64,000 nt of DNA. It comes from Flavobacteriales bacterium (GTDB taxonomy: Bacteria > Bacteroidota > Bacteroidia > Flavobacteriales_F > PHOS-HE28). The notes below the pieces were generated by a model that was given only the letters and a program-made list of their open reading frames with translations, had not been told where the DNA came from and ran no database searches. A program made the position numbers and the translations under genes. Position 1 is the stretch's first letter. Every line of letters begins with the position of its first letter. Shown here piece after piece: positions 7,027-39,801 of this stretch. The stretch is from assembly GCA_039933875.1 (NCBI GenBank), contig JBDTNF010000016.1, positions 1,522 to 65,521 of the forward strand, read 5' to 3'.

Positions 7027-8493
7027 TCAAAGCTCTTTGCGCAAACGCGCCACCGAGATGTTCAATTGCTCTCGGTATTTGGCCACGGTACGCCGCGCGA
7101 TGTTGTAGCCCTTGCTCTTGAGCAAGGCGGTCAGTTCGTCGTCGGTCAGCGGCTTGCGCTTCTCTTCGGCCTCGATCGCGTCCTTCAGGATCTTCTTCAC
7201 CTCGCGTGTGCTCACCTCCTCACCACTGTCGGTGCTCAGGCTTTCGCTGAAGAAGAACTTGAGCAGGAAGGTGCCGTGGTTCGTTTGCACGTACTTGCTG
7301 TTGGCTACCCGGCTGATGGTGCTGATGTCCAGCTTCACACGTTCGGCGATGTCCTTCAGGATCATCGGTTTCATTTTCGTCTCATCGCCACTGAGGAAGA
7401 ACTCGCGCTGGTGCTCCATGATGGCCTCCATGGTCACGAGCAGGGTGTTCTGCCGCTGCTTGATCGCGTCGATGAACCACTTCGCACTGTCCAGTTTCTG
7501 CTTGATGAACTGCAGGGCCTCGCGCTGGTCCTTGTCCTTCTTGTTCCGCTGGTATTCCTTGATCATGTCGCGGTACTGCCGGCTCACCCGCAGTTCCGGC
7601 GCATTGCGTCCGTTCAACGAAAGTTCGAGCTGCCCATCGCTGGCCATCACCATGAAGTCGGGGATGATCTCCTGCGATGGCTTGTCCGTGTCGCGCATGG
7701 TGTTGCCCGGCTTCGGGTTCAGGTGCACGATCAGGTCGATGGCGCCTTTCAGCGCGTCCTCGTCGATCTCAAGCCGGTCCAGGATGCGCTCGTAGTGCTT
7801 CTTGCTGAACGCCTCGAAATTCTTGTCCAGGATCTCACGTCCTACACGTTGTTCGAGGCTGTGCGGCATACGGTCCACTTGCAACAGCAGGCACTCACGC
7901 AGGTCGCGGGCACCCACCCCGGCGGGGTCGAGCGACTGCACCTCCTTCAGGGCCTTCAGCAACTCCTCACGCGTGCAGATCACGTTCTGTGTGAAGGCGA
8001 GGTCGTTCACGATGGCGTCGACGTCGCGACGGAGATACCCATCCTCGTCCAGGTTGCCGATCAAGTGTTCGGCGAGCAGTTCGGTGCGGTCGTCGCAGGC
8101 CCGCAGGCCCAGTTGCGCCTTCAGTGAATCCTGGAAGGTGGTGCCGCCGGCCAGCGGCATCACGCGCTCCTCCTCATCGGGGCCGCTGTTCTTCACGCTC
8201 AGCTTGTAATCAGGCGTGTCGTCGTCCTGGAAGTAATCGCTCAGGTCGAAATCGTCGCGCTCGTTCTCATCGTTGCCGTCGGCGTCCTGGTTCTGCTCCT
8301 CGATGGCCTGCTCCTCCGTGGGGGCCTCCTCCTCCTCATGGTCCTCGCCTTCCTCCAGGGCGGGATTGTCCTCGATCTCCTGCTTGATGCGCTGCTCCAG
8401 CTCCACGGTGGGCACCTGCAACAGCTTCATCAGCTGGATCTGCTGTGGGCTCAGCTTCTGCTGCAGCTTCTGGAAAAGGCCTTGTTTCAACAT
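7027..8493 (-). CDS. rpoN: RNA polymerase sigma-54 factor
   Basis: Start at MLKQGLFQKLQQKLSPQQIQLMKLLQ (canonical RpoN N-terminus). It has an acidic linker, and the C-terminal RpoN box 'ARRTVAKYREQLNI'. Confidence 0.95.
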   Translation of the reverse strand: MLKQGLFQKLQQKLSPQQIQLMKLLQVPTVELEQRIKQEIEDNPALEEGEDHEEEEAPTEEQAIEEQNQDADGNDENERDDFDLSDYFQDDDTPDYKLSVKNSGPDEEERVMPLAGGTTFQDSLKAQLGLRACDDRTELLAEHLIGNLDEDGYLRRDVDAIVNDLAFTQNVICTREELLKALKEVQSLDPAGVGARDLRECLLLQVDRMPHSLEQRVGREILDKNFEAFSKKHYERILDRLEIDEDALKGAIDLIVHLNPKPGNTMRDTDKPSQEIIPDFMVMASDGQLELSLNGRNAPELRVSRQYRDMIKEYQRNKKDKDQREALQFIKQKLDSAKWFIDAIKQRQNTLLVTMEAIMEHQREFFLSGDETKMKPMILKDIAERVKLDISTISRVANSKYVQTNHGTFLLKFFFSESLSTDSGEEVSTREVKKILKDAIEAEEKRKPLTDDELTALLKSKGYNIARRTVAKYREQLNISVARLRKEL

Positions 8494-8641
8494 CGCGGGG
8501 TAAAAATACCGGCACGGGCGCGGTTGGCGAAACAGAAAGCCGCGGAGAAGGTGTTTTCCGACCCCGCCACCCTGACGGTGGTCCGGGAAGCATTGACGCT
8601 GAGAATGATACATTCGAGCCTCTTCGCCACTTACCACCATA

Positions 8642-10363
8642 ATGATGGCACATTACCCAGCAAGGAGATCGGATCTCTTGAGATGGACGCTCGCGGTCCT
8701 TGGATCGCTGTGCGTGGTCACTGGCGCATGGGCGCAAGGGGAAAAGTTCGCTTACATCTGCTCGGGATATCCGATCCAGGCGGGGAAGGAACTGGTGGTT
8801 ACCGCCAGGGGAGAGGATGGCTCCACTGAAAAGGCCAGCGTTACCAAGCCGGGTGGTCAGTATTACCTGGTGAATGTGAGGTTGCGAATGGGCGTGGCCT
8901 ATGATGTGGAGTATGAGCTTGGAGGTACGTTGGTCCATACCGATGCGCTTGATGCGGTCGAGCGTGTGACGCCAGCGAGACCCCGCATCAAGGAGATCCA
9001 GTTCGACAAGGTCCCGAAAATGAAGAGCGGGCCTTCGGGCATGGTACCCCTGAGCGTACAGGCCAAGGGGGTCAGCGCCAGCGACCTTGGCCAGCCCACC
9101 CTCTCGGTCACCTCGGACGCGGGCAAGTCCCAGAACTCAACGAGGAAGCTGTCGAATGGGCTTGGCTTCGTGTATGTGAAGCCCGGCTTCACATACACGG
9201 TGCTCTATGAGCTGGGGGGCAAACACTATTCCCGCACCGGCCTTGTGCCCGATGATGGAACGGTGCCTGCGCGCTGGGACCTTGCCTTCGTCGAACCGCC
9301 CCCTCCGCCCCCTTGCGAGGTCGGTGCGTCCTGCGATGATGGCGACCCCAAGACCAAGAAGGACAAGCTCCTGCCCGATTGCACGTGCAAGGGGATCCCC
9401 GACGATTGCACGCGTGGGACACCCTGCGATGATGGTGACCCCGGTACGATCGGGGAGAAATTCAACAGCCGGTGCGAATGTGTGGGCGGCGTCCAGAAAC
9501 CCGACTGTCTTGGGGTGCCTGGCGGTTCCAGCAATCCCGGGGAGTCTTGTGACGATGGGAACCCACAGACCGTGAACGATGTCTTCTCGCCGGAGTGCAA
9601 GTGCGTAGGAACCACGTTGGAAAAGGACTGCGAGGGGAATGTGGGTGGCACCGCGGTGAAGGGGAGCTCTTGCGATGACGGCGACGCCAGGACAACGAAC
9701 GACAAGTGGGGTTCGGATTGCGTTTGCCGCGGCATGGTCGTCAGCAAGACCTCGTTGCCCATCATCGAGCATAGCGCATCGAGTGAGCTTCGATGCAGCG
9801 ACCTGCACGTATTGGTCTCCGGTAAGCCACGGGAGGCTTGGAAGGTGGGCGATGTGGATGAGGTGAACATGGAAGTGGATCGCACCGCTTATGCCGGACC
9901 TTCCTCCCAGGGCGAATCACTGGTGGCGCACGGGGACAGCCTGCGCGGCCTCATCTACGTGAACGACTCCCTCTGGCTGGAGCTCTCTTCACCCGATGGC
10001 TCCTTCACCATCGAGGCTGGAAAGGGCAACAGGCATCGCTCCATCCGCGAAACGGCGCCGCTGAGGTTCAAGTGGACCATCACCGCAGCGAAGGCCCCCT
10101 CCGAAGAGAAGGATGATTGGACCGTGTTGAAGCTGACCTCGTACACGCTGAACTGCAACACCGGCAATGCGCGCCTGGAGGAGTTCAACACCGTGGAATA
10201 CAAGGTCAAGGTCACCGAGAAGGTCGATATCCTGAAATGGATCCAGGAACACATCGCGGCCATCGGCACCATCCTGGCGGGCATCGCGGTCATCGTGGGA
10301 TACTTCCGGGACTGGTTCGGCGGCTTGTTCAAGCGCAAGGAGAAGGGCGGAACCCCGGCTTAG
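8642..10363 (+). CDS. Hypothetical type-I membrane-anchored surface protein with Cys-rich CDDGD repeats
   Basis: Signal peptide (LAVLGSLCVVTGAWAQ). Two related N-terminal segments ('AYDVEYELGGTLVH' and 'TYTVLYELGGKHY'), a PPPPPP linker, four Cys-rich repeats, a ~190-aa domain, and one C-terminal TM helix (IAAIGTILAGIAVIVGYF) followed by a basic tail. Confidence 0.8.
   Translation: MMAHYPARRSDLLRWTLAVLGSLCVVTGAWAQGEKFAYICSGYPIQAGKELVVTARGEDGSTEKASVTKPGGQYYLVNVRLRMGVAYDVEYELGGTLVHTDALDAVERVTPARPRIKEIQFDKVPKMKSGPSGMVPLSVQAKGVSASDLGQPTLSVTSDAGKSQNSTRKLSNGLGFVYVKPGFTYTVLYELGGKHYSRTGLVPDDGTVPARWDLAFVEPPPPPPCEVGASCDDGDPKTKKDKLLPDCTCKGIPDDCTRGTPCDDGDPGTIGEKFNSRCECVGGVQKPDCLGVPGGSSNPGESCDDGNPQTVNDVFSPECKCVGTTLEKDCEGNVGGTAVKGSSCDDGDARTTNDKWGSDCVCRGMVVSKTSLPIIEHSASSELRCSDLHVLVSGKPREAWKVGDVDEVNMEVDRTAYAGPSSQGESLVAHGDSLRGLIYVNDSLWLELSSPDGSFTIEAGKGNRHRSIRETAPLRFKWTITAAKAPSEEKDDWTVLKLTSYTLNCNTGNARLEEFNTVEYKVKVTEKVDILKWIQEHIAAIGTILAGIAVIVGYFRDWFGGLFKRKEKGGTPA
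9314..9733 (+). repeat. Four in-frame Cys-rich repeats, consensus C-x5-6-C-D-D-G-[DN]-x2-T-x2-[DE]-x5-C-x-C-x-G
   Basis: Read directly from the translation: 'GASCDDGDPKTKKDKLLPDCTCKG', 'GTPCDDGDPGTIGEKFNSRCECVG', 'GESCDDGNPQTVNDVFSPECKCVG', 'GSSCDDGDARTTNDKWGSDCVCRG'. Confidence 0.85.
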
Positions 10364-10486
10364 TCCGAGGGATCACGTGATGAGAAGTCGTTCCATCACG
10401 ATACGAAAGGAGGCCTGATCCGCTGCGTGCGATGACGGGCTCATATGAGCCTTCGGTCCATCAAGATCCTTCGGGGAGCGGATCGC

Positions 10487-13400
10487 TCAGCGCGCGGTCA
10501 ACATGATCCGCTCGATCACCGCGTCGGTGCCGTTGCCGATCCGCATCAGGTAGAGGCCCGTGACAGGATGCAGCAGGTCGATCCGCGCACGGCCTTCCGC
10601 GATGGTGGTGCGTGTGTAGGGCACGCTTTGGCCCAATGCGTCTATGAGCTCCAGCGGAGTTCCGGCGGGGAGGCTCACCCAGAAGCTGCCATCGTTCGGG
10701 TTGGGATACACCAACGTGCGTTCCTTCCAATCCGCCGATACGGTGGGTGAAAAGGTCTGGGTGTTGTCCAGATCGACCATGCGCAGGCGGTAGTAATTGG
10801 TGCCGGTCTTCGGCGCTTCGTCCAGGAACGAATACTCGATCATCGCGACGGAGTTCCCGGCGGCGGGCTGCGTGCCGATGCGTGCCCAGTCCGTTCCGTT
10901 GGTGCTGCGCTCGATGTCGTAGCGGGCACTGTTCAACTCGGTCGCGGTCGTCCAGGTCAGCAGGATGCCGCTGTTGTTCGGCCAGGCGTGCAGGTCAAGC
11001 AACTCCACAGGCAATGTGCTGTTGCCGAAGAGTTGCACATTGTCGAAGTAGAAGAAGTTGCCGTAGGCGTTGAGCCCCACGAAACGGATCTGTACGGTCT
11101 GTCCATCGTAGGCGCTGATGTTGATCGTGTTCGTCTGCCACTGCGAACAGTTCGTTGGTGCCCAGGCGTTGGTGTTAGCAGCGGTGGTCGCCAATGCGAC
11201 GCCAGAGGCGTTGTAGAGCGTCGTCCAACTTCCGCCGCAGTTGTTGCTGATGTCCACACGGAAACCGTCGTAGTAGCCGGCACCATAAGGAGCGAAGGCG
11301 CGGTCGAAGCGCAGTTGGCAACTCGACAGGCCGTTGAGGTTGATGCGCGGTGTCACCAGGCGATCCTCCTGGCCCACGCCATTGTAATTGTAGTTGTCGA
11401 TGCTCCACGCGCGTGTCGATCCGCAGTTGATGCCGTTGGTGAGCACCGTCGTGGTCCAGGTGGTCAGCGCATCGGGGTTCTCCAGGCGCCAACCCGCTGG
11501 TGCGGGCACCGTGGCCACGGCGAGCCCTTCGGAGAACGGCGCGGGAACGATGGTCGCATTGGTGACCGTGAAGGAACTGGTGGCTTGATCATTACCGGCG
11601 AACGAATCGCCGCCAAGCAAGGTGGATACCGCGACGGTGTGTGCTCCCGTTGTGCCGATCACCAGCGGTGTGGCGAAGGTGTAGGTCGCGCTGGCACCTG
11701 CGGCGATCGTCGCCGTGAACGTTTCGGCCACCCAGGCGCCGGCATCCAGGCGGTAGCGGATCGGGAAGTTGCTCTGGGCGTTCGATCCGAAATTCCGAAC
11801 GGTGGCGCTCACGATCGTGTTGTTGCCCGAGCAATCAAGCGTGCCCGAAGCCGACGGTGTGAGCACGGCCGAAACCCCGACGTTGTTCGGCAGCGGTGTA
11901 TCGTATGCTTCGGTCTGGTCGGTGCGGCTCAAGCTGCTGCCCTGGTTCGCGCTCACGCCAAGGCCGCGTCGCGCGAAGGCGTTCCACATGGCCGTTTGGT
12001 GAACGCCGCCGTAAAGCGCAGCATCGGCATTGATGAGCGCATTGCGCGCATCCACGAAACCGGGATTGCACGCGGTCAGCTTCATGCCCTCCATCACCAG
12101 GTGCATGGCGATGTTGTTGCCGCCGGTCCCGGAATAGATGTTCGGGTCGTAACCGTAGGTGTTGATCAACTCCCACGTCATTTCCCACAGGATGGTGCAC
12201 CACACGAAACCGATGCCGTGCGGCACGGCGATGGCCGCCGTGTTGTTCGTTGCCGCGTACGTGTAGTTGTTCTGCGCGAAATCGGTGCTGTACGGTGCAG
12301 GGCGTATGCCCCCACCGGTAACTCCCTGCCCGATCACGTAGGTGCCGATGCCGCGGCGATCCGTTCCCTGGTCCCCCACCTCGATTGTCATCATCAGCGC
12401 CACCCAGTCGCTCCAGCCTTCGCCCATCTGTTCGGCGTTGGTGAGGCAGTTCACGTTGGCCGGGCCACCCACCAGGCGGTTGCTTATGCCGTGCGCGTAT
12501 TCATGCGCGATCACACCGTTGTCGATGTCCCCATCGCGGCTCGGTGTGGTGTAGGTCCACACGTACATCTGCATGCGCGGTGAACTGCCTTCGGCAGGTG
12601 TTCCGAAGTTGGCGTTGTTCGTGCCGCCACCATCCTGTGCATCGGCGAACACATAGTCGTTGCCCGTGCCACCCCGGCCGTAGTTGTTCTGCTGGAAATT
12701 CCCGCTCGGGTCATCGAACCCGTAGGGGTACCACACATCGTGAACCAGGTTGTTCCAGTAGTAGAGGTTCGTGATCGCCGCGTTCTGGTAGGTGCTGGGC
12801 GCCCCGCCGAGGTTGATCGTGTAATCGAAGTCCAGCGTGGCGCTCACCGGCGATGCGCCTGTACCGTTGTTGTTGTTCGCATCCTCCTGCGCCCATGCGT
12901 TGTTGCCGCGCGTGGTGGTGTATTCGGGACCGGCAGCACCGTTGGTGTCGTTCCATCCGTAGGGCGAGGCGATGCCGCCGGCGGTCCAGGGTGCGTTGCG
13001 CAACGCCCGTGCCCCGTGGTTCGGGCTTTCAACCGGCATGGGGTACACGTTCAAGTCGTTCGCCACGAGCGGCGGTGGTGCAGCTTCGGGTGCAGCTTCG
13101 TCCAGGTGCGCCTCGCAAGCGGCATCATCGAAATGGCACTCGCTCACCCAATCGTTGCGGTCCAATTCATTGCCGGTCACCGCATCGATCCGCACGTTCC
13201 ACCAGTGCGAACCATCGGGGGTGTAGTGGTTCACGTTCCACACCAGGCGCAACTTGTCCTCCACCGGTAGCAGCATCAGCTGCACATGCACGGGCTCATT
13301 GCCCAGCGCGGCCCCGGCGAAGGTCAGCAGACGGCCACCATCCTCGGTGCTGAGTAGGGCGGGTGTTGCAGCGCCCGGAACGGTCTTCGCGAGCACGCTG

Positions 13401-13759
13401 GCAAGGGCCACTTCGGCACTCACACTCGGCGTGGTCGTGTTCACGCGTTTGGCCAGTTGCGGCCACGCACCATTGTTCAGTTGCAGCACCTGCCCATCGG
13501 GGGTAAGGTGTACGGCGATGTCGCCGTTCCATACCTCGATGCCCTGCCAGCGCTGGCGCAGGTAGGTGTGGCGCACCGGGCTGGCGGCACTCACGTAATC
13601 GTTCTTCACCACAAGGTCGCCCAGGTCCTCGGCCTGGAACCCCTGTTGCAGCAGGCTTTCCAGCACTTTCGTGCGCGCCACATCCACAGGTGCCTGCGCC
13701 ATGGCGGCAAGCAGAAGGCCGGAGGCCATCACTGTGAGGAGCGAGCGGTGCAGGTGCAT
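10487..13759 (-). CDS. Secreted M36 (fungalysin-type) zinc metalloprotease with CARDB-like, MAM-like and T9SS C-terminal sorting domains
   Basis: Signal peptide, then an FTP-like propeptide ('RHTYLRQRWQGIEVWNGDIAVH'). Zinc site 'HEYAHGISNRLVGGP' plus 'EGWSDW'. The C-terminal tail 'VYPNPNDGSFWV...LYLMRIGNG...' is a typical type-A T9SS sorting domain. Confidence 0.9.
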   Translation of the reverse strand: MHLHRSLLTVMASGLLLAAMAQAPVDVARTKVLESLLQQGFQAEDLGDLVVKNDYVSAASPVRHTYLRQRWQGIEVWNGDIAVHLTPDGQVLQLNNGAWPQLAKRVNTTTPSVSAEVALASVLAKTVPGAATPALLSTEDGGRLLTFAGAALGNEPVHVQLMLLPVEDKLRLVWNVNHYTPDGSHWWNVRIDAVTGNELDRNDWVSECHFDDAACEAHLDEAAPEAAPPPLVANDLNVYPMPVESPNHGARALRNAPWTAGGIASPYGWNDTNGAAGPEYTTTRGNNAWAQEDANNNNGTGASPVSATLDFDYTINLGGAPSTYQNAAITNLYYWNNLVHDVWYPYGFDDPSGNFQQNNYGRGGTGNDYVFADAQDGGGTNNANFGTPAEGSSPRMQMYVWTYTTPSRDGDIDNGVIAHEYAHGISNRLVGGPANVNCLTNAEQMGEGWSDWVALMMTIEVGDQGTDRRGIGTYVIGQGVTGGGIRPAPYSTDFAQNNYTYAATNNTAAIAVPHGIGFVWCTILWEMTWELINTYGYDPNIYSGTGGNNIAMHLVMEGMKLTACNPGFVDARNALINADAALYGGVHQTAMWNAFARRGLGVSANQGSSLSRTDQTEAYDTPLPNNVGVSAVLTPSASGTLDCSGNNTIVSATVRNFGSNAQSNFPIRYRLDAGAWVAETFTATIAAGASATYTFATPLVIGTTGAHTVAVSTLLGGDSFAGNDQATSSFTVTNATIVPAPFSEGLAVATVPAPAGWRLENPDALTTWTTTVLTNGINCGSTRAWSIDNYNYNGVGQEDRLVTPRINLNGLSSCQLRFDRAFAPYGAGYYDGFRVDISNNCGGSWTTLYNASGVALATTAANTNAWAPTNCSQWQTNTINISAYDGQTVQIRFVGLNAYGNFFYFDNVQLFGNSTLPVELLDLHAWPNNSGILLTWTTATELNSARYDIERSTNGTDWARIGTQPAAGNSVAMIEYSFLDEAPKTGTNYYRLRMVDLDNTQTFSPTVSADWKERTLVYPNPNDGSFWVSLPAGTPLELIDALGQSVPYTRTTIAEGRARIDLLHPVTGLYLMRIGNGTDAVIERIMLTAR

Positions 13760-13915: not shown

Positions 13916-15820
13916 CTAGAACTCCGCACTCTTCGGTGTGCGCGGGAAGGGGATCACATCGCGGATATTGCCCATGCCGGTAACGAAGAGCACGAAGCGC
14001 TCCAGCCCCAGCCCGAAGCCCGCGTGCGGCACCGTGCCGAATTTGCGTGTGTCCAGGTACCACCACAACTCTTCCTTGGGCAGGTGCATGGCGTCCATGC
14101 GCTTCACGAGTTCGTCGTAGCGCTCCTCGCGCTGGCTGCCACCGATGATCTCGCCGATGCCAGGGAACAGCACGTCCATCGCAGCCACGGTGGGGCCTTT
14201 GTCGCTGTAGCCGAAGTCGCCCGGCGCGTTCATGCGCATGTAGAAGGCCTTGATCTGTGCCGGGTAGCCCGTGACGATCACCGGCTTCTTGAAATGCTTC
14301 TCCACCAGGAAGCGCTCGTGCTCGCTCTGCAGATCGACACCCCATTCCACGGGGAACTGGAACTGCTTCTTCTGGTAGGGCTTGCTGCGCAGCAGGATGT
14401 CGATGGCCTGGTCGTAGGTGATGCGCTCGAAGGGGTTGTCGTGTACGAACTTCAACCGTTCGATAAGGCCCATCTCGCTGCGCTGCTCCTTGGGTTTGGT
14501 GGCTTCCTCTTCCGTGAGGCGCGCATCGAGGAAGGCGAGGTCGTCGGCACTGTTCTTCAGCACTCGTGCGATCAAATGCTTGCACAGGCCTTCGGCCAGG
14601 TCCATGTCGCCCTTCAGGTCCATGAAGGCAGCCTCGGGCTCGATCATCCAGAACTCGGCGAGGTGGCGTGTGGTATTGCTGTTCTCCGCGCGGAACGTAG
14701 GGCCGAATGTGTAGACCTTGCCCAATGCGAGCGCGGCGAGCTCGGCTTGCAACTGCCCGCTGACGGTCAGACGACTCTCACTTCCGAAAAAATCCTTGTC
14801 ATAATCAATGGTGCCTGGAATCACGACAAATAGGTTGTGAAACGCCAGCGCTCCAATGGGAAATTCTTCAATCGAGAAGAGTCGTTCGTATTCACCACCT
14901 ACTCGACGTCGTAGGGTGTACCCGTGCTCTCGGCAAAGTCTTTCCATATCTCGTTGATAGTCCGAGATGTCCTTATCCCCAATTCTGCCTTGATTGAGAC
15001 GGTTGGATATGTCGGTTACAAGATCCGTAAAGATTTTACGAATGCCAGGCTTTGCATCGAGGGGCTTCGTTAGCTCAGCTCGATTCTCATAGCCTTTCAT
15101 CAAGGCATTTGGAGGCAAGAAGATATAGTGAGCAAAGACCTCCATGTAGGCCTTAGTAAGGTCCGGTTCGAAGCCAACATCTTCTAACTTCTTCCGAAGA
15201 GTTACGAGAGCGGTCACTGCATATTCTTGAACAACCTTGTCAAAAATCGAATAGTCAACGGGCTCTGATCTCAACGACAACGGCGGGTTTGCAATGGGAA
15301 GGGTTGTGACTTGAAACATCTCGCCCGCACCCTCCGCATCGCTAGCCGTGATGATGGGCGCATGGAAGTAGTTGTAGCCGAGCCCGTCGAAATACTCGTG
15401 GATGCCGAAACTCACCTGGTGCCGCATGCGGAACACCGCGCTGTAGGTGTTGGTGCGGAAACGCAAATGCGCCTGCTCGCGCAGGAACTCGAGCGAGTGT
15501 TTCTTCGGTTGGATCGGATAGGCGGTGGCGTCGCTATCGCCGAGCACGACGACCTCCGTCACTTTCAGCTCGACGCGCTGGCCACTGCCTTGCGAGGCCA
15601 CGAGCTCACCGGTGCAACGCACTGCCGCACTGGTGGTGAAGCGTGCGCGTGTGGCCGCGTCCACCTTTTCCTGATCGATGACGCACTGCAGGTTGCGGAT
15701 GGTGCTGCCGTCGTTGAGCGCGATGAAGCGGTCGTTGCGGAAGGTGCGCACCCAGCCGGCCACCGTTACGGTCTGTCCGGTGAGGGTTTCGTTGTCAAGG
15801 ACGTCTTTGATGGAATGCAT
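13916..15820 (-). CDS. asnS: Asparagine--tRNA ligase with a ~150-aa in-frame insertion
   Basis: Start at [30 protein letters not shown] (typical AsnRS N-terminus, ATG 15820-15818). Class IIb motifs '[21 protein letters not shown]' and 'GGSQREER...[12 protein letters not shown]'. The protein is 634 aa versus about 465-480 aa for typical bacterial AsnRS. The extra residues (~181-335) lie between '[12 protein letters not shown]' and 'IDYDKDFFG'. Confidence 0.9.
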
Positions 15821-15972
15821 CGGCGAGAAAGAAGGGTGCGAGGGTGAAAGAGTGAGAGGGGTGGACTTGCCCTCGCGCTCTTTCACGCTTTCGGCGGCAA
15901 AGATGCACAAGCCTCCGCTACCGCTTGTTGTGCTGGGCGTGGCTGATGCACCCATGGACGCCCCTAACGCAA

Positions 15973-15998
15973 CAGGCAGGGACCGAAGTCCCTGCCTG
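15973..15998 (-). terminator. Hairpin terminator downstream of the OmpA-like gene
   Basis: On the minus strand: CAGGCAGGGAC-TTCG-GTCCCTGCCTG. This is an 11-bp stem with a UUCG-type tetraloop, 40 nt after the stop at 16038. The T-run is weak. Confidence 0.55.
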
Positions 15999-16037
15999 CT
16001 CGTTCGACGCCGCTCCAATTCAAGAGCGAGGTCGGCG

Positions 16038-16877
16038 CTACTTTTTAGTGGGGGCGGGTTGCGTCGGACTTCCCACCAGTTTGAAGAGTTCATCGAGCTT
16101 GGGCACCAGGATGATCTCCGTGCGGCGGTTGCGTGCACGATCCTCCGCGCTGCTGTTGCTGGCTATCGGCTGGAACTGGCTCCGCCCAGCGGCCTCCACC
16201 CGTTCAGGCGGTACCGAGTACGTGGTGGTGAGCAGGCGCACGATGCTCACGGCGCGTGCGGTGCTCAGGTCCCAGTTGTCGGTGTATTTCGAGGTCTTGA
16301 TGGGGATGCTGTCGGTATGCCCCTCCACCATCACATTGATGTCGGCGTTGGTGCGCAGTACGCCGGCCAGTTTGCCCAAGGCGTCCTTTCCTTTGGGATC
16401 GACTTTGGCGCTGCCGCTGGCGAAGAGCAGCTTTTCCGAGAGGGATACATAGATCTTGCCATCGCGCTCGGTGACGGTGAGGTCCTCGGCCTTGAAATTC
16501 ACCAGGGCATCGGTCACCTTTTTGCGCAGGGAGCTCATGGCATCGGTCTGCGCGCGCAATCGCGCATCCAGATCGTCCATGCGTTTCGCCTTCTGGCGGA
16601 GTTCCTCTTGGGTGGCGCGCAGTTCGCGACCACGCTCCTCCAATTGGGCCTTGGTCATATCGGCATCGCCCTGCAGACCCAGGTATTCAGCCCGTATGCT
16701 GCGCAGGTCGGTGGTGCATGAGGCGCTATCGGCACGCATGCGCTCGATAGTGGCCGCTTTCATGGCGGCGTCTTCCTTGTACCGGCCCATTTTGCAGCCT
16801 GAACCGAGGAGGATGATAGCCGCCAGCGCTGCCGCTGCCGGAAAGTATGTGGATGTGTTACGCATGGGGGTGTTCAA
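16038..16877 (-). CDS. OmpA/MotB-family peptidoglycan-binding lipoprotein with coiled-coil N-terminal region
   Basis: Lipobox 'LLGSGC', then a heptad-rich segment. OmpA-like domain '[12 protein letters not shown]...[17 protein letters not shown]...[11 protein letters not shown]'. Confidence 0.9.
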
Positions 16878-16901
16878 TAAGTGGTGTTATGGAGGTGGGG
16901 G

Positions 16902-17525
16902 TCAATTGTTCTTGTCCACCGCGTCCTTGTCATCATCGCCGATGTTCACGCCCAGGGTGAACAAGTACGTGAGGTACTTGCTGTCGAGGTTCTGCACCGA
17001 GACATCATCGTTGTACACACGACTGAGACCGAGGCTGACGCTGGGTTCCGCGGTGAAGCGCCCCATGTCGAATCCCAGGGCGACATCCAGGTTCCAGAGC
17101 GCCTCATTGAACTCACCATCATTGAATTCGATGTCGGAGTCCTTCACATCCTGGCTCAAGGAAACATCGAACGTGGGTCCCACGGCCAGGCGCATGTCGA
17201 ACTGGTAGTGATCGATGAGGCGGTAGCCCCCCATGAGTTTCAACTTGAGGTTGGTGGTCACGATGCGCCCACTTTGCGCGATGGTATCCTGGAATTCAAC
17301 GAACGTGGAGTTGCGACCGATGAAGGCACCCGGCTGCAGGTAGACCTTGTTGCCCCAGCGTGCATCGGCACCCAACAGGAAGCCGACGCGTGCGGAGTAG
17401 GTGACACCCTCGGGTGGCTTGGTGATGTTCTGATAGGTGACCCCCAATTGCGGGTTCACCTGCCACTGGGCCGCGGTGGCAAGGGCAAGCGGTCCCAGGG
17501 CAAGGACGAATAGCATACGTTTCAT
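16902..17525 (-). CDS. Outer-membrane beta-barrel (porin-family/OmpW-like) protein
   Basis: Start at MKRMLFVLALGPLALATAAQ (signal peptide). Alternating hydrophobic beta-strand pattern throughout. It lies 24 nt upstream of the OmpA-like gene on the same strand. Confidence 0.7.
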   Translation of the reverse strand: MKRMLFVLALGPLALATAAQWQVNPQLGVTYQNITKPPEGVTYSARVGFLLGADARWGNKVYLQPGAFIGRNSTFVEFQDTIAQSGRIVTTNLKLKLMGGYRLIDHYQFDMRLAVGPTFDVSLSQDVKDSDIEFNDGEFNEALWNLDVALGFDMGRFTAEPSVSLGLSRVYNDDVSVQNLDSKYLTYLFTLGVNIGDDDKDAVDKNN

Positions 17526-17705
17526 TTTCCGGGTTTTTTGATCTCCACCGTAGTCCCAATGCGTGTGCCCCCGCACCGATATGCGCTACAGCGCAACAGG
17601 GACGCAGGAACACAACCACTGGCTCCTTTTGTCGAAACGGGTGCGCCATGCCCATCGTGGGTACACACTGCCCCGAATGGGAACTGTCGAAATGGGCCTC
17701 GAGAA

Positions 17706-18410
17706 CTAGGGTGTCCCGACCGGCAAGCGCTCCTGCCACGCCTGTTGCAAGGCGCCGAGGAAGTGGTCTGCGTGTTGCGCACCACTCACCGCGTAGCGAC
17801 GGTCGAGCACGAAGAAGGGCACACCGCTTATACCCAGCTGCCGGGCCTCCCGCTCGTCCAGGCGCACGGCATCGGTGAGATCCATGCCAGCGAGCAGCGT
17901 CCGCACTTCGGCTTCCGCCAGGCCGATGTCCGTACCGAGACGCACCAGCGTACCGGCATCGGCGATGTTGGCACCTTCGATGAAGTACGCCTTGAACAAA
18001 CGCTCTTCGGCGGCATCGCCCAAGCCGTGTGTCTTGGCGAGTTGGATCAGTCGGTGCGCATCGAACGAGTTGGCGATCACGGTGGCGTCCATGTCATAGC
18101 TAAGCCCGAGCGATGCTGCCCGCTCCACCACGCCGCGCACGCGATCGCGTGCCTGCTCGATGCTCATGCCGTATTTGTGGGCGAGCATCTGGTAGGTGTT
18201 CATATCGCTGCGCGACGGGGCCTTGGGGTCCAACTCGAAGCTCTTCCAAGTCACGCGCACACGGTCCTTATGGGGAAAACGCTCCAGCGCGTTCTCGAAC
18301 TCGCGCTTGCCGATGTAGCAGAAGGGGCAGGCCACATCGCTCCAGATCTCGACGGCAAGGGGTTGTTCGCTGGCTTCACTGGCTTCGATGGGCGTTGGCA
18401 CGTTCGTCAT
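17706..18410 (-). CDS. DsbA-family (FrnE-like) thiol oxidoreductase
   Basis: Thioredoxin-fold active site 'WSDVACPFCYIGK' and C-terminal 'GVPFFVLDRRYAVSGAQ'. Start chosen at MTNVPTPIE. Confidence 0.85.
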   Translation of the reverse strand: MTNVPTPIEASEASEQPLAVEIWSDVACPFCYIGKREFENALERFPHKDRVRVTWKSFELDPKAPSRSDMNTYQMLAHKYGMSIEQARDRVRGVVERAASLGLSYDMDATVIANSFDAHRLIQLAKTHGLGDAAEERLFKAYFIEGANIADAGTLVRLGTDIGLAEAEVRTLLAGMDLTDAVRLDEREARQLGISGVPFFVLDRRYAVSGAQHADHFLGALQQAWQERLPVGTP

Positions 18411-18454
18411 AGGGTACAAAGGTCCGGCGCGTGGAGTAACGAGGGACATCCACA

Positions 18455-18483
18455 GGAAACATTTTCACACTTAAAGTGTTTCC
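18455..18483. promoter_or_regulatory. Candidate TetR operator (overlapping inverted repeats)
   Basis: GGAAACA (18455-18461) / TGTTTCC (18477-18483), overlapping the 11-bp palindrome CACTTAAAGTG (18468-18478). It sits in the divergent spacer just upstream of the -7 box of the tetR-efflux operon. Confidence 0.3.
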
Positions 18484-18500
18484 GATGTGTTAATCGTCAT

Positions 18501-18508
18501 TACGTTTG
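18501..18508 (+). promoter_or_regulatory. Bacteroidota-type -7 promoter box (TAnnTTTG)
   Basis: TACGTTTG lies 44 nt upstream of the tetR ATG. No clean -33 TTG was seen. Confidence 0.4.
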
Positions 18509-18551
18509 CGCCCCCGAAAGCCGAGGTGGCATTTCGGAGCCGACCTGAACC

Positions 18552-19223
18552 ATGGCCAACGACAAACTGAACCCGACCGACCAGCCCGGCCTAGAGCCGA
18601 TGGATGAACGCGGTCGGCGCATCCTGGAGGAAAGCGCCAAGGTCTTCTGGAAACTGGGCATCAAGAGCGTGACGATGGACGACGTGGCCACGCGCCTGGG
18701 GATCTCCAAGAAGACCCTCTACCAGTACGTCACCGACAAGAACGACCTGGTGGACCGTGTGCTGAAGTACCTGAGCGTATGCTACAAGTGCGACATCGAC
18801 GCGGTGCGCGCACGGGAGAAACAGAACGCGATCGACGAGCTGTACGCGGTGACCACCACGGTGGCCGGACAACTCGAAGGCATCCATCCCTCGATCCACT
18901 TCGATCTTGAGAAGTACCACCCCGAGGCCTTCCACAACATGGTGGACGGTAAGCGCAAGGAGATCTTCTCCTGCATGACGGAGAACATGGCCAAGGGGAT
19001 CGCCGAGGGGCTGTACCGAGAGGACTTGAACATCCCGATGATCGCGACGATCTACATCGCGCGCTTCGACATGGTGTTCGATGGGAAGTTGTTCCCGCCG
19101 GACCGCTTCAGCATGAACGACCTGCACTGGGAGATCTTCAAGTACCATGTGCGCGGCATCGCGAGCAAAAAGGGACTGGACTACCTGGAGAAGAAGATGA
19201 CCAAAGAACGTGTGAACGCATGA
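18552..19223 (+). CDS. TetR/AcrR-family transcriptional regulator
   Basis: N-terminal helix-turn-helix 'GIKSVTMDDVATRLGISKKTLYQYV'. It is the first gene of the efflux operon, and its stop overlaps the next start (ATGA at 19220-19223). Confidence 0.9.
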   Translation: MANDKLNPTDQPGLEPMDERGRRILEESAKVFWKLGIKSVTMDDVATRLGISKKTLYQYVTDKNDLVDRVLKYLSVCYKCDIDAVRAREKQNAIDELYAVTTTVAGQLEGIHPSIHFDLEKYHPEAFHNMVDGKRKEIFSCMTENMAKGIAEGLYREDLNIPMIATIYIARFDMVFDGKLFPPDRFSMNDLHWEIFKYHVRGIASKKGLDYLEKKMTKERVNA

Positions 19224-20545
19224 AGAGCCTGTTGACCATACTGTGCACCGCGGCCGTGTTGTCCGCGAGCGCGCAAGGCCCCGTGAGCCTGACCCTGAAG
19301 GAGGCCATGGACCGTGCCGCCCAATACAACTACGTGGTGCAGAACAGCACCCTGGAAGCCGAGAAGGCGTCCAAGCGCATCAAGGAGACCCTGGCGATCG
19401 GCCTTCCACAGATCGATGCGAGCGGGAGCCTGAACAACTACATCGATGTGCCCACGCAGGTGATCCCCAACTTCTTCGGCGAAGGCCCTTCGGTGGTGCC
19501 GGTGCAGTTCGGCCTGCCCTGGAACGCAACAGGCAGCATCCAGCTGTCGCAGTTGATCTTCAACGGGTCGTACATCGTCGGGGTGCAGGCCACCAAGAAG
19601 TTGCAACAGCAGAGCGATGAGCAGTTGGAACAGAACGTGACCGCAGCGCGCATTGCCGCCGCCAAATCCTACTACGCCGTACTGGCCGCCATGGAAGGCC
19701 GTCGCCTGCTCGCCGAATCCGTTCCGCTCCTGGAGAAGAACGTGAACGAAAGCACGGCCATGGAGCAGGCCGGTTTCATGGAGAACACCGATGTGGACCG
19801 CCTGCGCATCGAACTCACGACCCTCCAGGACAACCTGGCGGTGTTCGAGCGACAGGAACAACTGGCGCGCAACTACCTGCTCTTCGCCCTTGGCCTGCCC
19901 AGCGGCACCCCGGTGCAACTCACCGATGACCTCGACGTGCTGCTCGCCGACCCGAACGAGACCGCCCTTATCGGCGCCGCGTTCGACCTGAACACGCACA
20001 TCGACCACCAGCTCGCCACCACGGTGATGGGCGTGCAGGAACTCAGCCTCAAGAACGGGAAGAGCGCCTACCTGCCATCGATGAACGGCTTCATCAGTCA
20101 CTCGCAGCAGGCTTACAGCCAGGAGTTCGATTTCTTCGGCAGCAACGGCGCATGGTACCCAGCCACCATGTGGGGCTTGAGCCTGAACGTGCCCATTTTC
20201 AGCAGCGGCATACGCCATTACAAAGTGGCGCAGGAAAAGATCGCGTTGGAGCAAACACAAGTGAACCTTACCGCCACCGATGAGCGGCTCCGCCTGGAAT
20301 ACGCGCAGCGCCGATCCGACGCCCAGACCGCCGAGCAGTTGTTCGCCAGCCAGAAGGACCGCCTGGAATTGCAGAAGCGCGTCTTCGAACGCACCTCGGT
20401 GAAATTCACCAACGGTGTGGCGAGCAGTTTCGAACTCACCCAGGAGCAGAGCAACTACCTGCAGGCGCAGCAGGATTACATCCAGCGCGTGGTGAACCTG
20501 GTGCAAGCCCGCACCGAACTGCGCAAAGCACTCGATCTCTATTGA
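19220..20545 (+). CDS. TolC-family outer-membrane efflux protein
   Basis: Signal peptide, a two-fold repeated OEP architecture, and operon context with the MFP and RND genes. Confidence 0.9.
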   Translation: MKSLLTILCTAAVLSASAQGPVSLTLKEAMDRAAQYNYVVQNSTLEAEKASKRIKETLAIGLPQIDASGSLNNYIDVPTQVIPNFFGEGPSVVPVQFGLPWNATGSIQLSQLIFNGSYIVGVQATKKLQQQSDEQLEQNVTAARIAAAKSYYAVLAAMEGRRLLAESVPLLEKNVNESTAMEQAGFMENTDVDRLRIELTTLQDNLAVFERQEQLARNYLLFALGLPSGTPVQLTDDLDVLLADPNETALIGAAFDLNTHIDHQLATTVMGVQELSLKNGKSAYLPSMNGFISHSQQAYSQEFDFFGSNGAWYPATMWGLSLNVPIFSSGIRHYKVAQEKIALEQTQVNLTATDERLRLEYAQRRSDAQTAEQLFASQKDRLELQKRVFERTSVKFTNGVASSFELTQEQSNYLQAQQDYIQRVVNLVQARTELRKALDLY

Positions 20546-20561
20546 ACCTCCTACCGAACAC

Positions 20562-21728
20562 GTGATGAAGAACACGATCCTGTTTACAATGACCGCGGTC
20601 CTCCTGGCCGCATGCGGTGCCACCACCGCTGGCTCCGAATCAGTGCTCAAGAAGCGCGCGGAACGCGACTCCTTGAAAACCGCTTACGCCGAGATCGGCG
20701 TGAAGATCAAGGAAGCCGAGGAATGGCTCACAGAGAACGACACGAGCTTGAAGCGCAACCTGCCGACGGTGACGGCGCTCGAACTGAAAGTGGGTCGCTA
20801 TGCCCACTTCGTGGACGTGCATGGCAGCGTGCGGGCGGACAAGGCCGCCACACTGTACTCCATGGGTGGGGGGCGCGTGCGCTCCATCCAGGTGAGCGCT
20901 GGCGACCGTGTGAGCGCCGGCGACTTGTTGGTGGGCATGGACAGCGACGTGATCCAGAAGCAGATCGCACAGGCTGAGACCGGTGCCGAACTCGCGCGTA
21001 CCACGTTCGAGAAGCAGGACCGCCTCTGGCAACAGAAGATCGGCAGCGAGATGCAATACCTCCAGGCCAAGACCCAGAAGGAACAGGCCGAAGCGGGTGT
21101 CGCCGCATTGCGGGAACAACTACGCCTCACCAATGTGACCGCGCCCTTCTCAGGCACCGTGGATGAAGTGATGGTGCGCCTGGGCGACATGACGGCGCCT
21201 GGTCTTCCCGTGGCGCGCGTGGTGGACCTGAGCGGTGTGCAGCTCGAGGCCGATGTGCCCGAGGGCTACGTGAAGAGCGTGGTGACCGGCGCACCGGTGA
21301 AGGTCTCCTTCCCCAGCATCGGGGAGTCCTTCGATGCCCAGCTTGCCCACGTCGGTGAATTCATCGACCCCACGAACCGCACGTTCAAGATCACCGTGCG
21401 CGTGCCGAAGGACGAAGCCTACATGCGGCCCAACCTGCTCAGCGACCTGAGCATCCAGGACGCAAGTAGCGACAGCGCTATCGTGGTGCCGAGCCGCACG
21501 CTGTTGGAGGATGTCGACGGCAACAACTATCTCTTCGTGCTCGACGCCACGAAGGATGATGAGGCGAAAGCCCGCAAGGTGATGGTGAAGCGCCTGAGCG
21601 AATACAAAGGCGACGCCAGCATCGCACCCGTTGAAGCCGGTGCGCTCAAGGGCGGTGAGATGATCGTGGACGAAGGCGCCAAAAACGTGACGGGTGGACA
21701 GACCGTCCGCGTCGCACCCAAACACTGA
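20562..21728 (+). CDS. Efflux RND periplasmic adaptor (membrane fusion protein, HlyD family)
   Basis: Lipoprotein signal 'LLAACG', a coiled-coil hairpin, lipoyl-like 'GGRVRSIQVSAGDRVSAGDLLV', and a position between the TolC and RND genes. Confidence 0.9.
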   Translation: MMKNTILFTMTAVLLAACGATTAGSESVLKKRAERDSLKTAYAEIGVKIKEAEEWLTENDTSLKRNLPTVTALELKVGRYAHFVDVHGSVRADKAATLYSMGGGRVRSIQVSAGDRVSAGDLLVGMDSDVIQKQIAQAETGAELARTTFEKQDRLWQQKIGSEMQYLQAKTQKEQAEAGVAALREQLRLTNVTAPFSGTVDEVMVRLGDMTAPGLPVARVVDLSGVQLEADVPEGYVKSVVTGAPVKVSFPSIGESFDAQLAHVGEFIDPTNRTFKITVRVPKDEAYMRPNLLSDLSIQDASSDSAIVVPSRTLLEDVDGNNYLFVLDATKDDEAKARKVMVKRLSEYKGDASIAPVEAGALKGGEMIVDEGAKNVTGGQTVRVAPKH

Positions 21729-21736
21729 CCCGAGCC

Positions 21737-24700
21737 ATGCAAGTGAACGATATCGAGAACGACCTGCACGACGGGCCTGAACGCCAGTTCGGGATCACGA
21801 CATGGGCGGTGAACAACCGCACCACCGTGATCGTGCTCACGGTGCTGATCTGTGTGCTGGGCATCTACTCCTACATGGTGATGCCCAAGGAGAGCTTCCC
21901 CGAGGTGGTGACGCCTGAAGTGTTCGTGGGCACGGCCTACAACAGCAGCTCGGTGGTCGACATCGAGAAACTGATCACCAAGCCGATCGAGAAGGAACTC
22001 AAATCGATCAGCGGGATCGACGTGATCAAGAGCACCAGCGTGCCGAACTACAGCGCCATCGACGTGAAGTTCAACTACAACGTGACGCCCACGGAGGCGC
22101 TGCGCAAGGTGAAGGACGCGGTGGACAAGGCGCGTGGTGACAAGAACTTCCCGACCGACCTGCCCCAGGAACCGAACGTGGTGGAGCTGAACTTCTCGGA
22201 GCTCACGCCGGTGATGAACATCAACCTGAGCGGCGACTATCCGATGACGCAGTTGCATTCGTACGCGAAGCACCTGCAGGACCGGATCGAGGCGTTGCCC
22301 GAGATCAACAAGGTGGAGATCCGCGGCGTGCCTGAACGTGAGATGCGGGTCAGCATCGACCTCGGCCAGCTCGAAGCACTGCAGATGAACTTCGGTGATG
22401 TGGCCCAAGCGCTGCAAACCGAGAACCTGACCATGAGCGGCGGTGAACTGCTGGTGGGCGATCAGCGCCGCGCTGTGCGCGTGATCGGCGAGTTCAAGAA
22501 CGTGGAGCAGGTGCGCGACATCGTGGTGAAGAACGAGAAGATGCGGGAAGTACGCCTTGGCGATATCGCCGAGGTGGCGTTCGCCTACAAGGAGGCCGAG
22601 AGCTTCTCCCGCGAATACGGGAAGCCGGTCGTGATGCTCGATGTGTTCAAACGCGCGGGTGAGAACCTGCTCACCGCGAGCGACGGCATCAACTCGATCC
22701 TCGCGGAGGACAAAGGGCGTGTGCTGCCCGAGGACCTCACCATCACCATGACCGGTGACCAGAGCGATAACACGCGCACCAGCGTCGATGAGTTGATGAA
22801 CCACATCGTGCTCGGCGTGATCCTGGTCGTGGGTGTGCTCATGCTTTTCCTCGGCCTGCGCAACGCGGCCTTCGTGGGTCTTGCGATCCCGATGAGCATG
22901 TTCATCTCCTTCACCCTCCTCAACGCATTCGGCGTCACGCTGAACATCATGGTGCTGTTCGCCCTCATCCTCGCCCTCGGCCGCCTGGTGGACGATGGCA
23001 TCGTGATCGTGGAGAACATCTACCGCCACATGAGCAACGGTGAACCGGCCGCCCGGGCGACCCGACTTGCCGTGGGCGAAGTGACCATGCCCATCATCGC
23101 GGCCACCACGGCGACGGTGATGGTGTTCGTGCCACTGCTCTTCTGGCCCGGCATCATGGGCGCGTTCATGAAGTTCCTGCCCATCACGTTCATGATCGCG
23201 CTGGGATCATCGCTCTTCGTGGCGCTCGTGGTGAACCCCGCACTGGCCTCCAAATTCATGAAGATCGAGAAGAGCACGCCGAACATGCGCAAGACCTGGC
23301 GACTCGCGGGCATCCTGATGATCATCGGCACAGTGATCGCGGTGCTTGGATCGAGCGCGAAGTCCTCGGGCCTTTTCGGTCTGGGCACGCTCACGCTCTT
23401 CCTCGGCCTCCTGGTGGTGGCGAACGCCAAGTGGATCGAACCCGCGACGGACTGGTTCCAGAACACCTGGCTGCCGCGCATCGAGTCGCGCTACGAAGGC
23501 TTCCTGCGTTACGCGCTGGACCGACACCACCCACGCACGTTCCTGATCGGGACGTTCGCGCTGCTCATCACAGCGTTCGTTCTCATCTTCAAAGTCTTCC
23601 CACCTAAGACCCTGTTCTTCCCGGAGAACGAACCGCAGTTCGTCAACGCCTTCATCGAAGCGCCCATCGGCACCGACATCCTCAAGACCGATAGCATCGC
23701 CCGCATCGTGGAGAAGCAAGTGATGAAAGTGATCAACGCACCGGAGTACATGGAAGCGCGCGAAACGACGATGCCCGATGGCACCGTGCGCAAGGATAGC
23801 GTCAACTACCTGGTGAAATCCGTGATCGCTCAAGTGGGGCGTGGTACGAGCGACCCGGGCAGCGGTGAACAGGAAACAAGCGCCACCCCGCACAAGGCCC
23901 GTATCCAGGTGACCTTCGTGAAGTTCTCCGATCGACATGGTAAAAAGACCAACGCCGTGCTCGAAGCGCTCCAGAAGGGTGTCACCGGCTACCCGGGCGT
24001 GATCGTCACCGTGGCGAAGAACGCAGCGGGTCCTCCCACCGGAAAACCGATCAACCTGGAGATCAGCGGGGACGAGATCGAAGGCCTGCTGGCCGAGGCC
24101 GAGCGTGCCAAGACGTTCATCGAAAGCCGCAACGTGCCGGGTGTCGAGGCGTTGCGCCTGGACATCGACCGGGCCAAACCGGAGATGCCGATCGTGATCG
24201 ACCGCGCGAAGGCCCGCCGGTTGAACGTGAGCACCTATGCCATCGCCGATGCGATCCGCACCGCGCTGTTCGGCAAGGAGGTGAGCACCTACCGCATCGA
24301 CGGTGACGACGATGACTACGAGATCAACGTGCGCCTGAAGGATGACTACCGCTACGACGCGCAGAAGCTGATGGACATGAAGATCACCTTCCGCGACATG
24401 CTCTCCGGGCAGATCCGGCAGGTGCCCATCAGCGCCGTGGCCAAGGATGAACGCAGTACCACCTTCAGCGCCATCAAACGCAAGGACCTGAAACGGGTGG
24501 TGAGCGTGAGCAGCAACGTGATCGCAGGCTACAACAACACCGAAGTGGTGCAGCAGATCAAGGACGAGATGGACAGCGGATTCAAGCTTGGTGACGCCTA
24601 TACCATGCGCTTCACCGGTGAGCAGGAGGACCAGGCCAAGGACATGGGCTTCCTCATGAGCGCCTTCATGGTGGCCCTCTTCGTGGTGTTCCTCATCATC

Positions 24701-39724: not shown

Positions 39725-39801
<77 letters not shown>

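Follow-up and report, generated by a model that had tools for sequence, protein, structure and literature searches.

The asparagine--tRNA ligase (AsnRS) gene, asnS, of an uncultured Flavobacteriales bacterium is interrupted by an in-frame segment encoding an additional domain of about 155 residues. We analysed this gene within a stretch of 64,000 nucleotides (contig JBDTNF010000016.1), hereafter the window. The unit that differs between asnS alleles spans codons ~170-360, that is, the domain together with its flanks, and has a lower GC content of its own. Judged by their sequences, highly divergent members of a single cassette family occupy this one site in no fewer than 12 AsnRS alleles, which belong to two lineages of Flavobacteriales, and the genealogy of these cassettes is decoupled from that of the surrounding asnS, their presence being patchy down to nearest neighbours. 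We consider it likely, with a probability of roughly 0.7, that the cassette is a translated accessory domain that homologous recombination exchanges among the alleles of asnS. The features on which this account rests are the following, in the order in which the gene is read.

13916..15820, minus strand: coding sequence of asnS, 634 codons and a stop, for a complete class IIb asparagine--tRNA ligase split by the insert.
15542..15769, minus strand: N-terminal oligonucleotide/oligosaccharide-binding (OB)-fold anticodon-binding domain, residues 18-93 (Pfam PF01336; predicted local distance difference test score, pLDDT, >90 in the model).
15314..15343, minus strand: flipping-loop block, residues 160-169, the last native GC-rich codons and the putative 5' crossover anchor.
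15281..15313, minus strand: putatively co-transferred 5' flank, residues 170-180, homologous to asnS, with cassette-type codons and the 'TTLP' signature.
14816..15280, minus strand: inserted domain, residues 181-335, ~155 residues, predicted to be mostly alpha-helical, a gap in alignments to insert-less AsnRS.
14741..14815, minus strand: putatively co-transferred 3' flank, residues 336-360, conserved asnS protein with cassette-type codons.
14633..14722, minus strand: motif 2 block, residues 367-396, the first native codons past the insert and the putative 3' crossover anchor.

The enzyme that hosts the insert shows the hallmarks of an ordinary AsnRS. Its start is the ATG at 15820, with an N-terminus matching all homologues; the frame lies within a mechanically called open reading frame (ORF), 13916..16138, which starts 106 codons too far upstream, with a GTG at 16138, and extends over the end of an OmpA-family gene. 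Pfam places tRNA-synt_2 (PF00152) over the core (8.4e-62) and also matches tRNA_anti-codon, while the NCBIfam equivalog NF003037 (606.7 bits against a cut-off of 414) and TIGR00457 (544.3 against 342.6) both match the protein as two stretches with the insert skipped. The best solved relative is the Elizabethkingia AsnRS (PDB 6pqh; 1.3e-182 by phmmer against the PDB), to which the conserved motif 2 and 3 blocks align ungapped; the full-length model superposes on this structure with a TMt of 0.88, and Foldseek searches with that model matched solely AsnRS and AspRS. Homologues were collected with the full-length AsnRS as query by examining the best 120 of 8000 AsnRS matches; the alignment used comprised 117 AsnRS. 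Across these the flipping-loop block is invariant and the motif 2 block near-invariant, and residues 159-167 of the model have a pLDDT below 50, as a mobile loop would give. The host part is under purifying selection, with ratios of nonsynonymous to synonymous change (dN/dS) of 0.05-0.16. The window asnS is a native chromosomal gene for an AsnRS that is predicted to be catalytically complete.

The first-pass annotation, made from the letters of the window, had described a 634-residue AsnRS with an open frame and an insertion of ~155 residues at ~181-335, helical-looking and assignable to no family, and each of these points was confirmed. The limits of the insert follow from two measures: 6pqh aligns to residues 3-180 and 336-634 with only ~4 residues of its own between the two stretches, and, in the 117 AsnRS, the distance from GAGEMF to DFFG is 173 residues in the window versus 11-23, mostly 22, in ~105 insert-less relatives. 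The insert occupies a beta-hairpin loop that comes directly after the flipping loop and lies upstream of motif 2, with GAGEMF before it and DFFG behind. In an insert-less sister group (P0071, P0076-P0083) the loop at this site is shorter, with 11-15 residues (RVTALEDTKGTDP.E), so that the length of the hairpin appears to be generally variable, fitting a permissive insertion point.

AlphaFold2, run with the 117-sequence alignment, predicts helices at residues 190-214, 219-233, 237-245, 247-255, 258-276 and 285-298, with strands 181-183 and 332-338 forming a two-stranded beta stalk that joins the insert to the core; in this full-length context the pLDDT at residues 181-300 is 80-95. Modelled alone (12 sequences), the insert reaches a pLDDT of 82 and a predicted template modelling score (pTM) of 0.78, and the models suggest that it folds autonomously as a mostly helical domain. 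The frame is open across the insert (155-175 codons) in all 12 alleles, the window and 11 homologues. The cassette dN/dS is 0.069 between the window and P0002 (proportions of nonsynonymous and synonymous differences, pN and pS, 0.094 and 0.64) and 0.089 between P0006 and P0008, in both pairs as low as in the enzyme itself. On these coding signatures the insert is an in-frame, presumably translated protein domain constrained by purifying selection. No match for it was found in Pfam, NCBIfam or PHROGs (PHROGs: none below E 0.02), nor any sequence match in the PDB. Foldseek with the insert-only model gave at best E 2 in the PDB and 0.9 in BFVD, with template modelling (TM) scores <=0.34, and literature searches turned up no account of the AsnRS insert. 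By sequence and predicted structure, the insert would belong to a family without earlier description.

Among the matches listed, at least 11 other AsnRS, of 632-656 residues, have a homologous insert at the identical site. Nine of these carriers (P0001-P0009) fall in the same high-GC Flavobacteriales clade as the window, and two (P0087 and P0089) come from low-GC marine flavobacteria; the carrier contigs span independent projects and assemblers, one of them measures 1.58 Mb, and P0089 occurs on 6 contigs. Word-seeded searches of 5.8 billion proteins with the insert alone or with the 12-cassette alignment returned nothing, a miss of the tool and not an absence, since the full-length query found the 11 members in that very database. 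A phmmer search of 1.84 billion representatives yielded a single match, the AsnRS P0001, the other carriers probably being clustered at 50% identity with insert-less AsnRS. As insert-only searches missed known members, the true spread of the cassette is probably underestimated. Scans of metagenome and viral sequences with degenerate cassette patterns gave no match, and two matches of a hand-made cassette pattern lay in unrelated ORFs and were rejected as chance.

The tract that distinguishes carriers from non-carriers extends beyond the inserted domain. Over the ten high-GC carriers, the low content of G or C at third codon positions (GC3) begins at codon 169/170 and ends at 360/361, so that the unit takes in 11 upstream and ~25 downstream asnS codons. 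Counted codon by codon, the third position is G or C in 2-8/10 carriers in the 5' flank versus 2/2 insert-less alleles, and in the 3' flank in 3-9/10 carriers up to codon 360 and 9-10/10 from codon 361, with 8-10/10 at codons 366-376. The pooled GC3 of the flanks is 0.56 in the high-GC carriers, compared with 0.89 elsewhere in the gene and with 0.78-0.86 at these codon positions in insert-less alleles. The residues differ as well: the 5' flank reads [QR]VTTLP in 12/12 carriers and RVS[VT]LD or RVTTLD in insert-less alleles of the same clade, while the 3' flank reads ..DY.[KRQ]DFFG (mostly DFFGRE) in carriers and VDFKEDFFG.ES in insert-less clade members. Synonymous sites in the flanks are saturated (pS 0.63-0.91) and the flank protein is conserved (pN 0.016-0.115).

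The same borders emerge when the window is compared with L096, the contig of the insert-less P0010, which is syntenic (OmpA gene, then asnS) and has ~90% nucleotide identity to the window. The identity breaks just past GAGATGTT at ~15316 and recovers at ~14730-14700, the matches in the 3' flank rising from 15/28 to 31/45 and 36/45 and then to 41-43/45. On either side, the tract is bordered by the blocks that vary least in the enzyme, the flipping-loop block and the motif 2 block.

Cassettes and host genes also differ in their histories. In the high-GC clade, identity is 86-97% between AsnRS parts and 21-48% between inserts (16-51% over all carriers), save for window-P0002 with 84% and P0006-P0008 with 82%. 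Pairs at equal host divergence differ ~4-fold in insert divergence, as the following comparisons illustrate.

P0006-P0008: host divergence 0.031, insert divergence 0.19.
P0004-P0008: host divergence 0.031, insert divergence 0.78.
Window-P0002: host divergence 0.125, insert divergence 0.17, insert/host ratio 1.3.
Window-P0004: host divergence 0.125, insert divergence 0.70.

The host part of P0002 is nearest to those of P0004, P0006 and P0008 (94-95%) and 87% identical to that of the window, and its cassette is of the window type. In a bootstrapped neighbour-joining (NJ) tree of the host part only, carriers stand at no fewer than 6 positions among insert-less alleles. The window groups with its nearest relative, the insert-less P0010 (bootstrap 100, host protein 96.7% identical), which has an ordinary 22-residue loop; P0003 with P0017 (bootstrap 79, 97.5% identity) and P0009 with P0055 (bootstrap 75) are further pairs of a carrier and an insert-less allele. 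The breakpoints at ~15316 and ~14730 against L096, together with the incongruence among P0002, the window and P0004, are those of a mosaic gene. The scattered carriers, the insert-less P0010/L096 and the unequal insert divergence all support the earlier view that the insert did not arise by slow growth in place.

Composition follows the same borders. GC3 is ~0.85-0.9 in the native parts of asnS and 0.36-0.6 through the insert; over codons 169-360 it is 95/192 = 0.49 versus 377/442 = 0.85 for the other codons of the gene (Fisher p = 4.5e-20). The total GC of the insert is 0.465 versus 0.605 +/- 0.023 over all 465-nucleotide windows of the 64 kb (z = -6), making it the lowest-GC segment of this length in the window, and the GC3 of all other window genes is 0.70-0.88. 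A GC3 scan without significant deviation had been named beforehand as a way to refute the foreign-looking composition; the scan instead supports it, as well as the A/T-ending codon usage that the conserved flanks share with the insert (~170-180 and 336-360, in the window and nine other high-GC carriers). Two long antisense ORFs were likewise found to break at the borders of the patch, as the first reading had it.

14024..14833, plus strand: spurious antisense ORF, a by-product of the high GC3 of native asnS, ending where the low-GC tract starts.
15311..15847, plus strand: spurious antisense ORF, resuming at the opposite edge of the low-GC tract.

All ten cassettes in high-GC hosts have a GC3 of 0.38-0.62, and those of the marine carriers (locus GC 0.32) have 0.18-0.23, close to the 0.25 of their hosts. 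The 'TTLP' signature of the flank is typical of other Bacteroidota loops. Both observations favour a reservoir of lower GC, and the low GC of the cassettes probably reflects time spent in lower-GC Bacteroidota, of which the marine carriers are an example, or flow from them. Translational-pause codons were considered for the flanks and rejected, the A/T-ending codons showing no positional conservation across alleles save for a shared GAT at D161. This codon (15338-15340, in the flipping-loop block) is GAT in 10/10 carriers and 2/2 insert-less alleles among codons that are ~90% G/C-ending, a conserved 'rare' codon at the flipping loop.

Divergent as they are, the cassettes have several short elements in common.

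15242..15259, minus strand: N-side strand motif [VI][DN][YF]xx(D)F, here VDYSIF, residues 188-193, found in 12/12 cassettes.
14786..14809, minus strand: further copy of the strand motif on the C side, IDYDKDFF, residues 338-345, matching the lone VDFKEDFF of insert-less alleles.
14876..14935, minus strand: most conserved cassette core, C-x2-[HN]-G-[YW]-x-L, residues 296-315, with C, G and L invariant in 12 cassettes.

The strand motif is present at both borders of every cassette and once in the insert-less loop. Invariant over the 12 cassettes are P, P, F, C, G, L, F, N and F, none of them acidic or His. Because all cassettes share both borders and the C..GY.L / F.N.F core, a single founding insertion, possibly with a short target duplication and followed by long diversification, would account for the family. 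In the window DNA, two short in-frame direct repeats lie at the insert ends (14789-14862 and 15230-15300), of 22 nucleotides with 73% and 16 nucleotides with 81% identity, spaced by 438 and 441 nucleotides and encoding LPIANPP../FPIGALAF and ..FDKVV/..YDKDF; these could be left over from a target duplication, or the resemblance could be due to chance or structure.

In the explanation that we favour, the cassette would be gained, lost and replaced as asnS alleles recombine with each other by the ordinary homologous route (allelic gene conversion), and crossovers would resolve in the nearly invariant flipping-loop and motif 2 blocks on either side. The cassette would not be self-mobile, and the insert would be retained in the mature AsnRS. 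The co-conversion of adjacent asnS codons, suspected from the outset, finds support in the flanks, the codons and residues of which go with the insert.

Several observations weigh against this explanation. The lower-GC donor suggested in the first-pass annotation is borne out as regards the low GC3 and unproven as regards the donor itself: the nucleotide identity of the 3' flank is flat, at 65-73%, to 94 asnS loci, and none of them stands out. Cassettes in high-GC hosts keep their GC3 of 0.38-0.62 despite a pS of 0.58-0.64 within a type, and such lasting low GC3 in the face of old divergence is not what a simple recent import predicts; the low GC could instead be a stable local property, a compositional equilibrium, and no fresh import. 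That cassettes ~0.6 pS apart are both near a GC3 of 0.5 fits partial amelioration and local equilibrium equally well. Moreover, the ratio comparisons are inflated by a saturation of insert divergence near 0.75-0.8, and most internal nodes of the NJ tree have low bootstrap, leaving the count of gain and loss events uncertain.

A bolder account, which we regard as doubtful, makes the cassettes in-frame, non-splicing 'parasitic or armour domains' of many ancient types that spread by converting one asnS site. They would be kept either selfishly, through an unseen nuclease or because imprecise loss is lethal, or by frequency-dependent selection from an antagonist that docks at the flipping loop (a toxin, a phage factor or a natural-product inhibitor). 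The stable low GC would then follow from a tract that, unable to recombine with most alleles, escapes GC-biased conversion.

Vertical inheritance of a lineage-specific insertion, meaning one ancient event with fast, uneven evolution and many independent precise losses, seems unlikely to us. The borders and core common to all cassettes do speak for a single origin, the insert/host divergence ratio of ~4-6 in P0006-P0008 and P0087-P0089 fits a fast co-inherited domain, and the mostly low bootstraps of the host tree leave this account some room. However, one and the same host divergence (0.031) goes with insert divergences of 0.19 and 0.78, while the ratio for window-P0002 is only 1.3. The canonical 22-residue loop with native codons in neighbours of 96.7-97.5% identity would also need many exact deletions plus reversion of flank codons and residues, and a long resident should have reached the GC3 of its host. 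In sum, presence of the insert is incongruent with the host phylogeny, and insert and host do not co-diverge. Close relatives carrying the segment with native codon usage and a congruent phylogeny had been proposed as grounds for refuting an acquisition; the carriers proved to share the low GC3, and their phylogeny to be incongruent.

The first-pass annotation had leaned towards a homing-type event, and here the results went the other way. A selfish element of this kind, in which the insert or a partner acting in trans is a nuclease that cuts insert-less asnS so that repair copies cassette and flanks, would agree with the single, fixed position of the insert in an essential and highly conserved gene, the patchy distribution, the short co-converted flanks with common boundaries, the composition unlike that of the host and a cassette age greater than that of the host clade. 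Against it, the 12 cassettes gave no HINT, LAGLIDADG, HNH or GIY-YIG match at E <= 1, nor any profile match to PD-(D/E)xK nucleases, and contain no invariant acidic or His residue. The predicted fold is helical, neither HINT nor alpha-beta-beta-alpha, with no nuclease-like Foldseek match, and no recurrent nuclease gene adjoins asnS in the carrier loci. With no nuclease found, homing is unsupported, and we hold it to be quite improbable. An intein in particular was rejected: the residue after the C-terminal junction varies among the 12 cassettes (T, K, Q, E, Y), with no conserved nucleophile at the junction; the N-junction residues vary too; and the apparent 'HN' is [HFY]-N followed by L/I/V, 6-8 residues before the junction, with no HINT profile match.

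Removal of the segment as an intervening sequence, either a group I/II intron or a cryptic intein, would leave a canonical mature enzyme, and its ~465 nucleotides at a conserved site in an essential gene are within the size range of ORF-less group I introns. We judge this to be very improbable: no Rfam intron was found (Rfam 15 at E <= 10 yields chance snoRNA-like matches alone), the frame is open in 12 divergent alleles with a pN of 0.09 versus a pS of 0.6, a protein fold is predicted with confidence, and no intein signature is seen. An assembly chimera of two organisms' asnS genes, which an abrupt switch of composition inside a conserved gene of probably metagenome-derived sequence might suggest, can be dismissed as next to impossible, given the same architecture in 12 alleles from independent projects and assemblers (the 1.58-Mb contig included), identical proteins on 2-6 contigs from different samples and an exact frame at both joints.

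Other identities were tried and set aside. The insert borders lack the terminal inverted repeats of a MITE (miniature inverted-repeat transposable element) or a Rickettsia palindromic element. Copies in other genes or as a free-standing ORF, which had seemed worth looking for, did not appear: tblastn of the 12 cassettes against the window and 96 loci found one copy per locus, inside asnS only. A diversity-generating retroelement was rejected, there being no second copy in the 64-kb window and no reverse transcriptase among the called genes of the carrier loci, and the cassettes differing by indels and at all residue types. In tblastn searches, phages gave Achromobacter phage primases at E ~0.3, taken as chance, and a plasmid collection gave no cassette match. 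PADLOC matches of 13-17 bits, to different candidate families for each cassette type or region, were rejected as noise.

As to function, the flipping loop of AsnRS locks Asn-AMP and then moves aside to admit the tRNA acceptor end. A surface module beside this gate might modulate the traffic of substrates and products, or, alternatively, might mask the flipping-loop face of the enzyme from an antagonist; the argument for either role, modulating or shielding, is by position and analogy and is weak. A nucleic-acid-binding appendage was rejected, the cassette charge being acidic to neutral in high-GC hosts and basic in the marine ones alone, with no consistent signal. The position of the insert relative to the tRNA is taken from its sequence neighbourhood and from the Plasmodium AsnRS (PMC10831071).

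The surroundings of asnS are partly conserved. Upstream of the gene in the window (16038-25348) are the OmpA-family gene, an outer-membrane protein beta-barrel, DsbA and a TetR-OEP-HlyD-AcrB efflux operon, and this operon adjoins asnS both in the window and in the carrier loci L081, L085, L089 and L090. The neighbourhood is otherwise reshuffled among close relatives. In the marine relatives L086 and L095, rpoN (sigma-54) comes immediately after asnS. In the window (7027-13759) two genes separate asnS from rpoN (7027-8640): an M36 fungalysin-type metallopeptidase gene with a type IX secretion system sorting tail (10487-13759) and a 573-residue ORF on the opposite strand without Pfam match (8642-10363). 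The arrangement resembles a local insertion between two genes that form a conserved pair. Downstream of the carrier asnS of P0006 is an AAA_14/DUF4143 ATPase gene (L088, 6964-8103) that is absent from the other carrier loci. The tRNA genes at 831-903 and 39728-39801 are the sole Rfam families to reach the gathering score in the 64-kb window.

Textbooks present the aminoacyl-tRNA synthetases as model cases of core enzymes that are conserved and stable in vertical descent, and the domains added to them are usually fixed and lineage-wide. The insertion domains of class II synthetases, such as the GAD domain of bacterial AspRS, lie between motifs 2 and 3, are phylum-wide and are inherited vertically. 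Like the GAD domain, the AsnRS insert is an autonomous domain set into a catalytic-core loop with the core left intact, but it differs in its position, between the flipping loop and motif 2, and in its presence/absence and multi-type polymorphism. The mosaic penicillin-binding-protein genes of Streptococcus and Neisseria arise as divergent blocks are imported by recombination in conserved flanks. These have in common with asnS the sharp breakpoints and the divergent block inside a conserved chromosomal gene, although there the exchanged block is homologous, whereas in asnS it includes an entire extra domain. Inteins and homing-endonuclease elements are like the cassette in occupying one conserved site of an essential gene, in being patchily present, in carrying host flanks along and in having a genealogy decoupled from that of the host. 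In contrast to them, the insert lacks the HINT fold, splicing residues and a nuclease motif and is apparently retained, and general recombination would explain its spread.

Two further comparisons concern additions to intact proteins. The Plasmodium AsnRS has a 76-residue low-complexity insert beside the flipping loop/motif 1 region, for which altered dynamics of substrate binding and product release have been proposed (PMC10831071). It too is an in-frame addition by the flipping loop, at a spot that tolerates large additions, the two sites being matched by neighbourhood only. Yet it is restricted to one lineage and is apparently vertical, whereas the insert described here is a (predicted) folded domain of 155-175 residues, polymorphic among near-identical hosts and with a composition of its own. 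Rickettsia palindromic elements and MITEs are palindromic repeats of 100-150 bp with many copies in many genes (PMC10969869). The Rickettsia elements are similar in that extra DNA is translated in frame as a surface addition to intact conserved proteins. Unlike them, the insert measures 465-525 bp, has no terminal inverted repeats, is single per locus set and occurs in asnS only.

What sets the asnS insert apart is that a whole domain, folded according to the models, exists as a presence/absence and multi-allelic polymorphism in an essential gene, beside the loop that gates the active site; compared with the PDB and BFVD, the domain is also a candidate new fold. If the cassette is indeed exchanged by recombination, asnS would provide a natural system for the entry and spread of domains in essential proteins without a dedicated mobility machine, would show how islands of conservation set co-conversion tracts, and would allow a local recombination deficit to be tested against foreign origin as the force that shapes GC3. 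Should the domain turn out to shield or regulate AsnRS at the flipping loop, this would indicate an antagonist or a control of the enzyme in environmental Bacteroidota.

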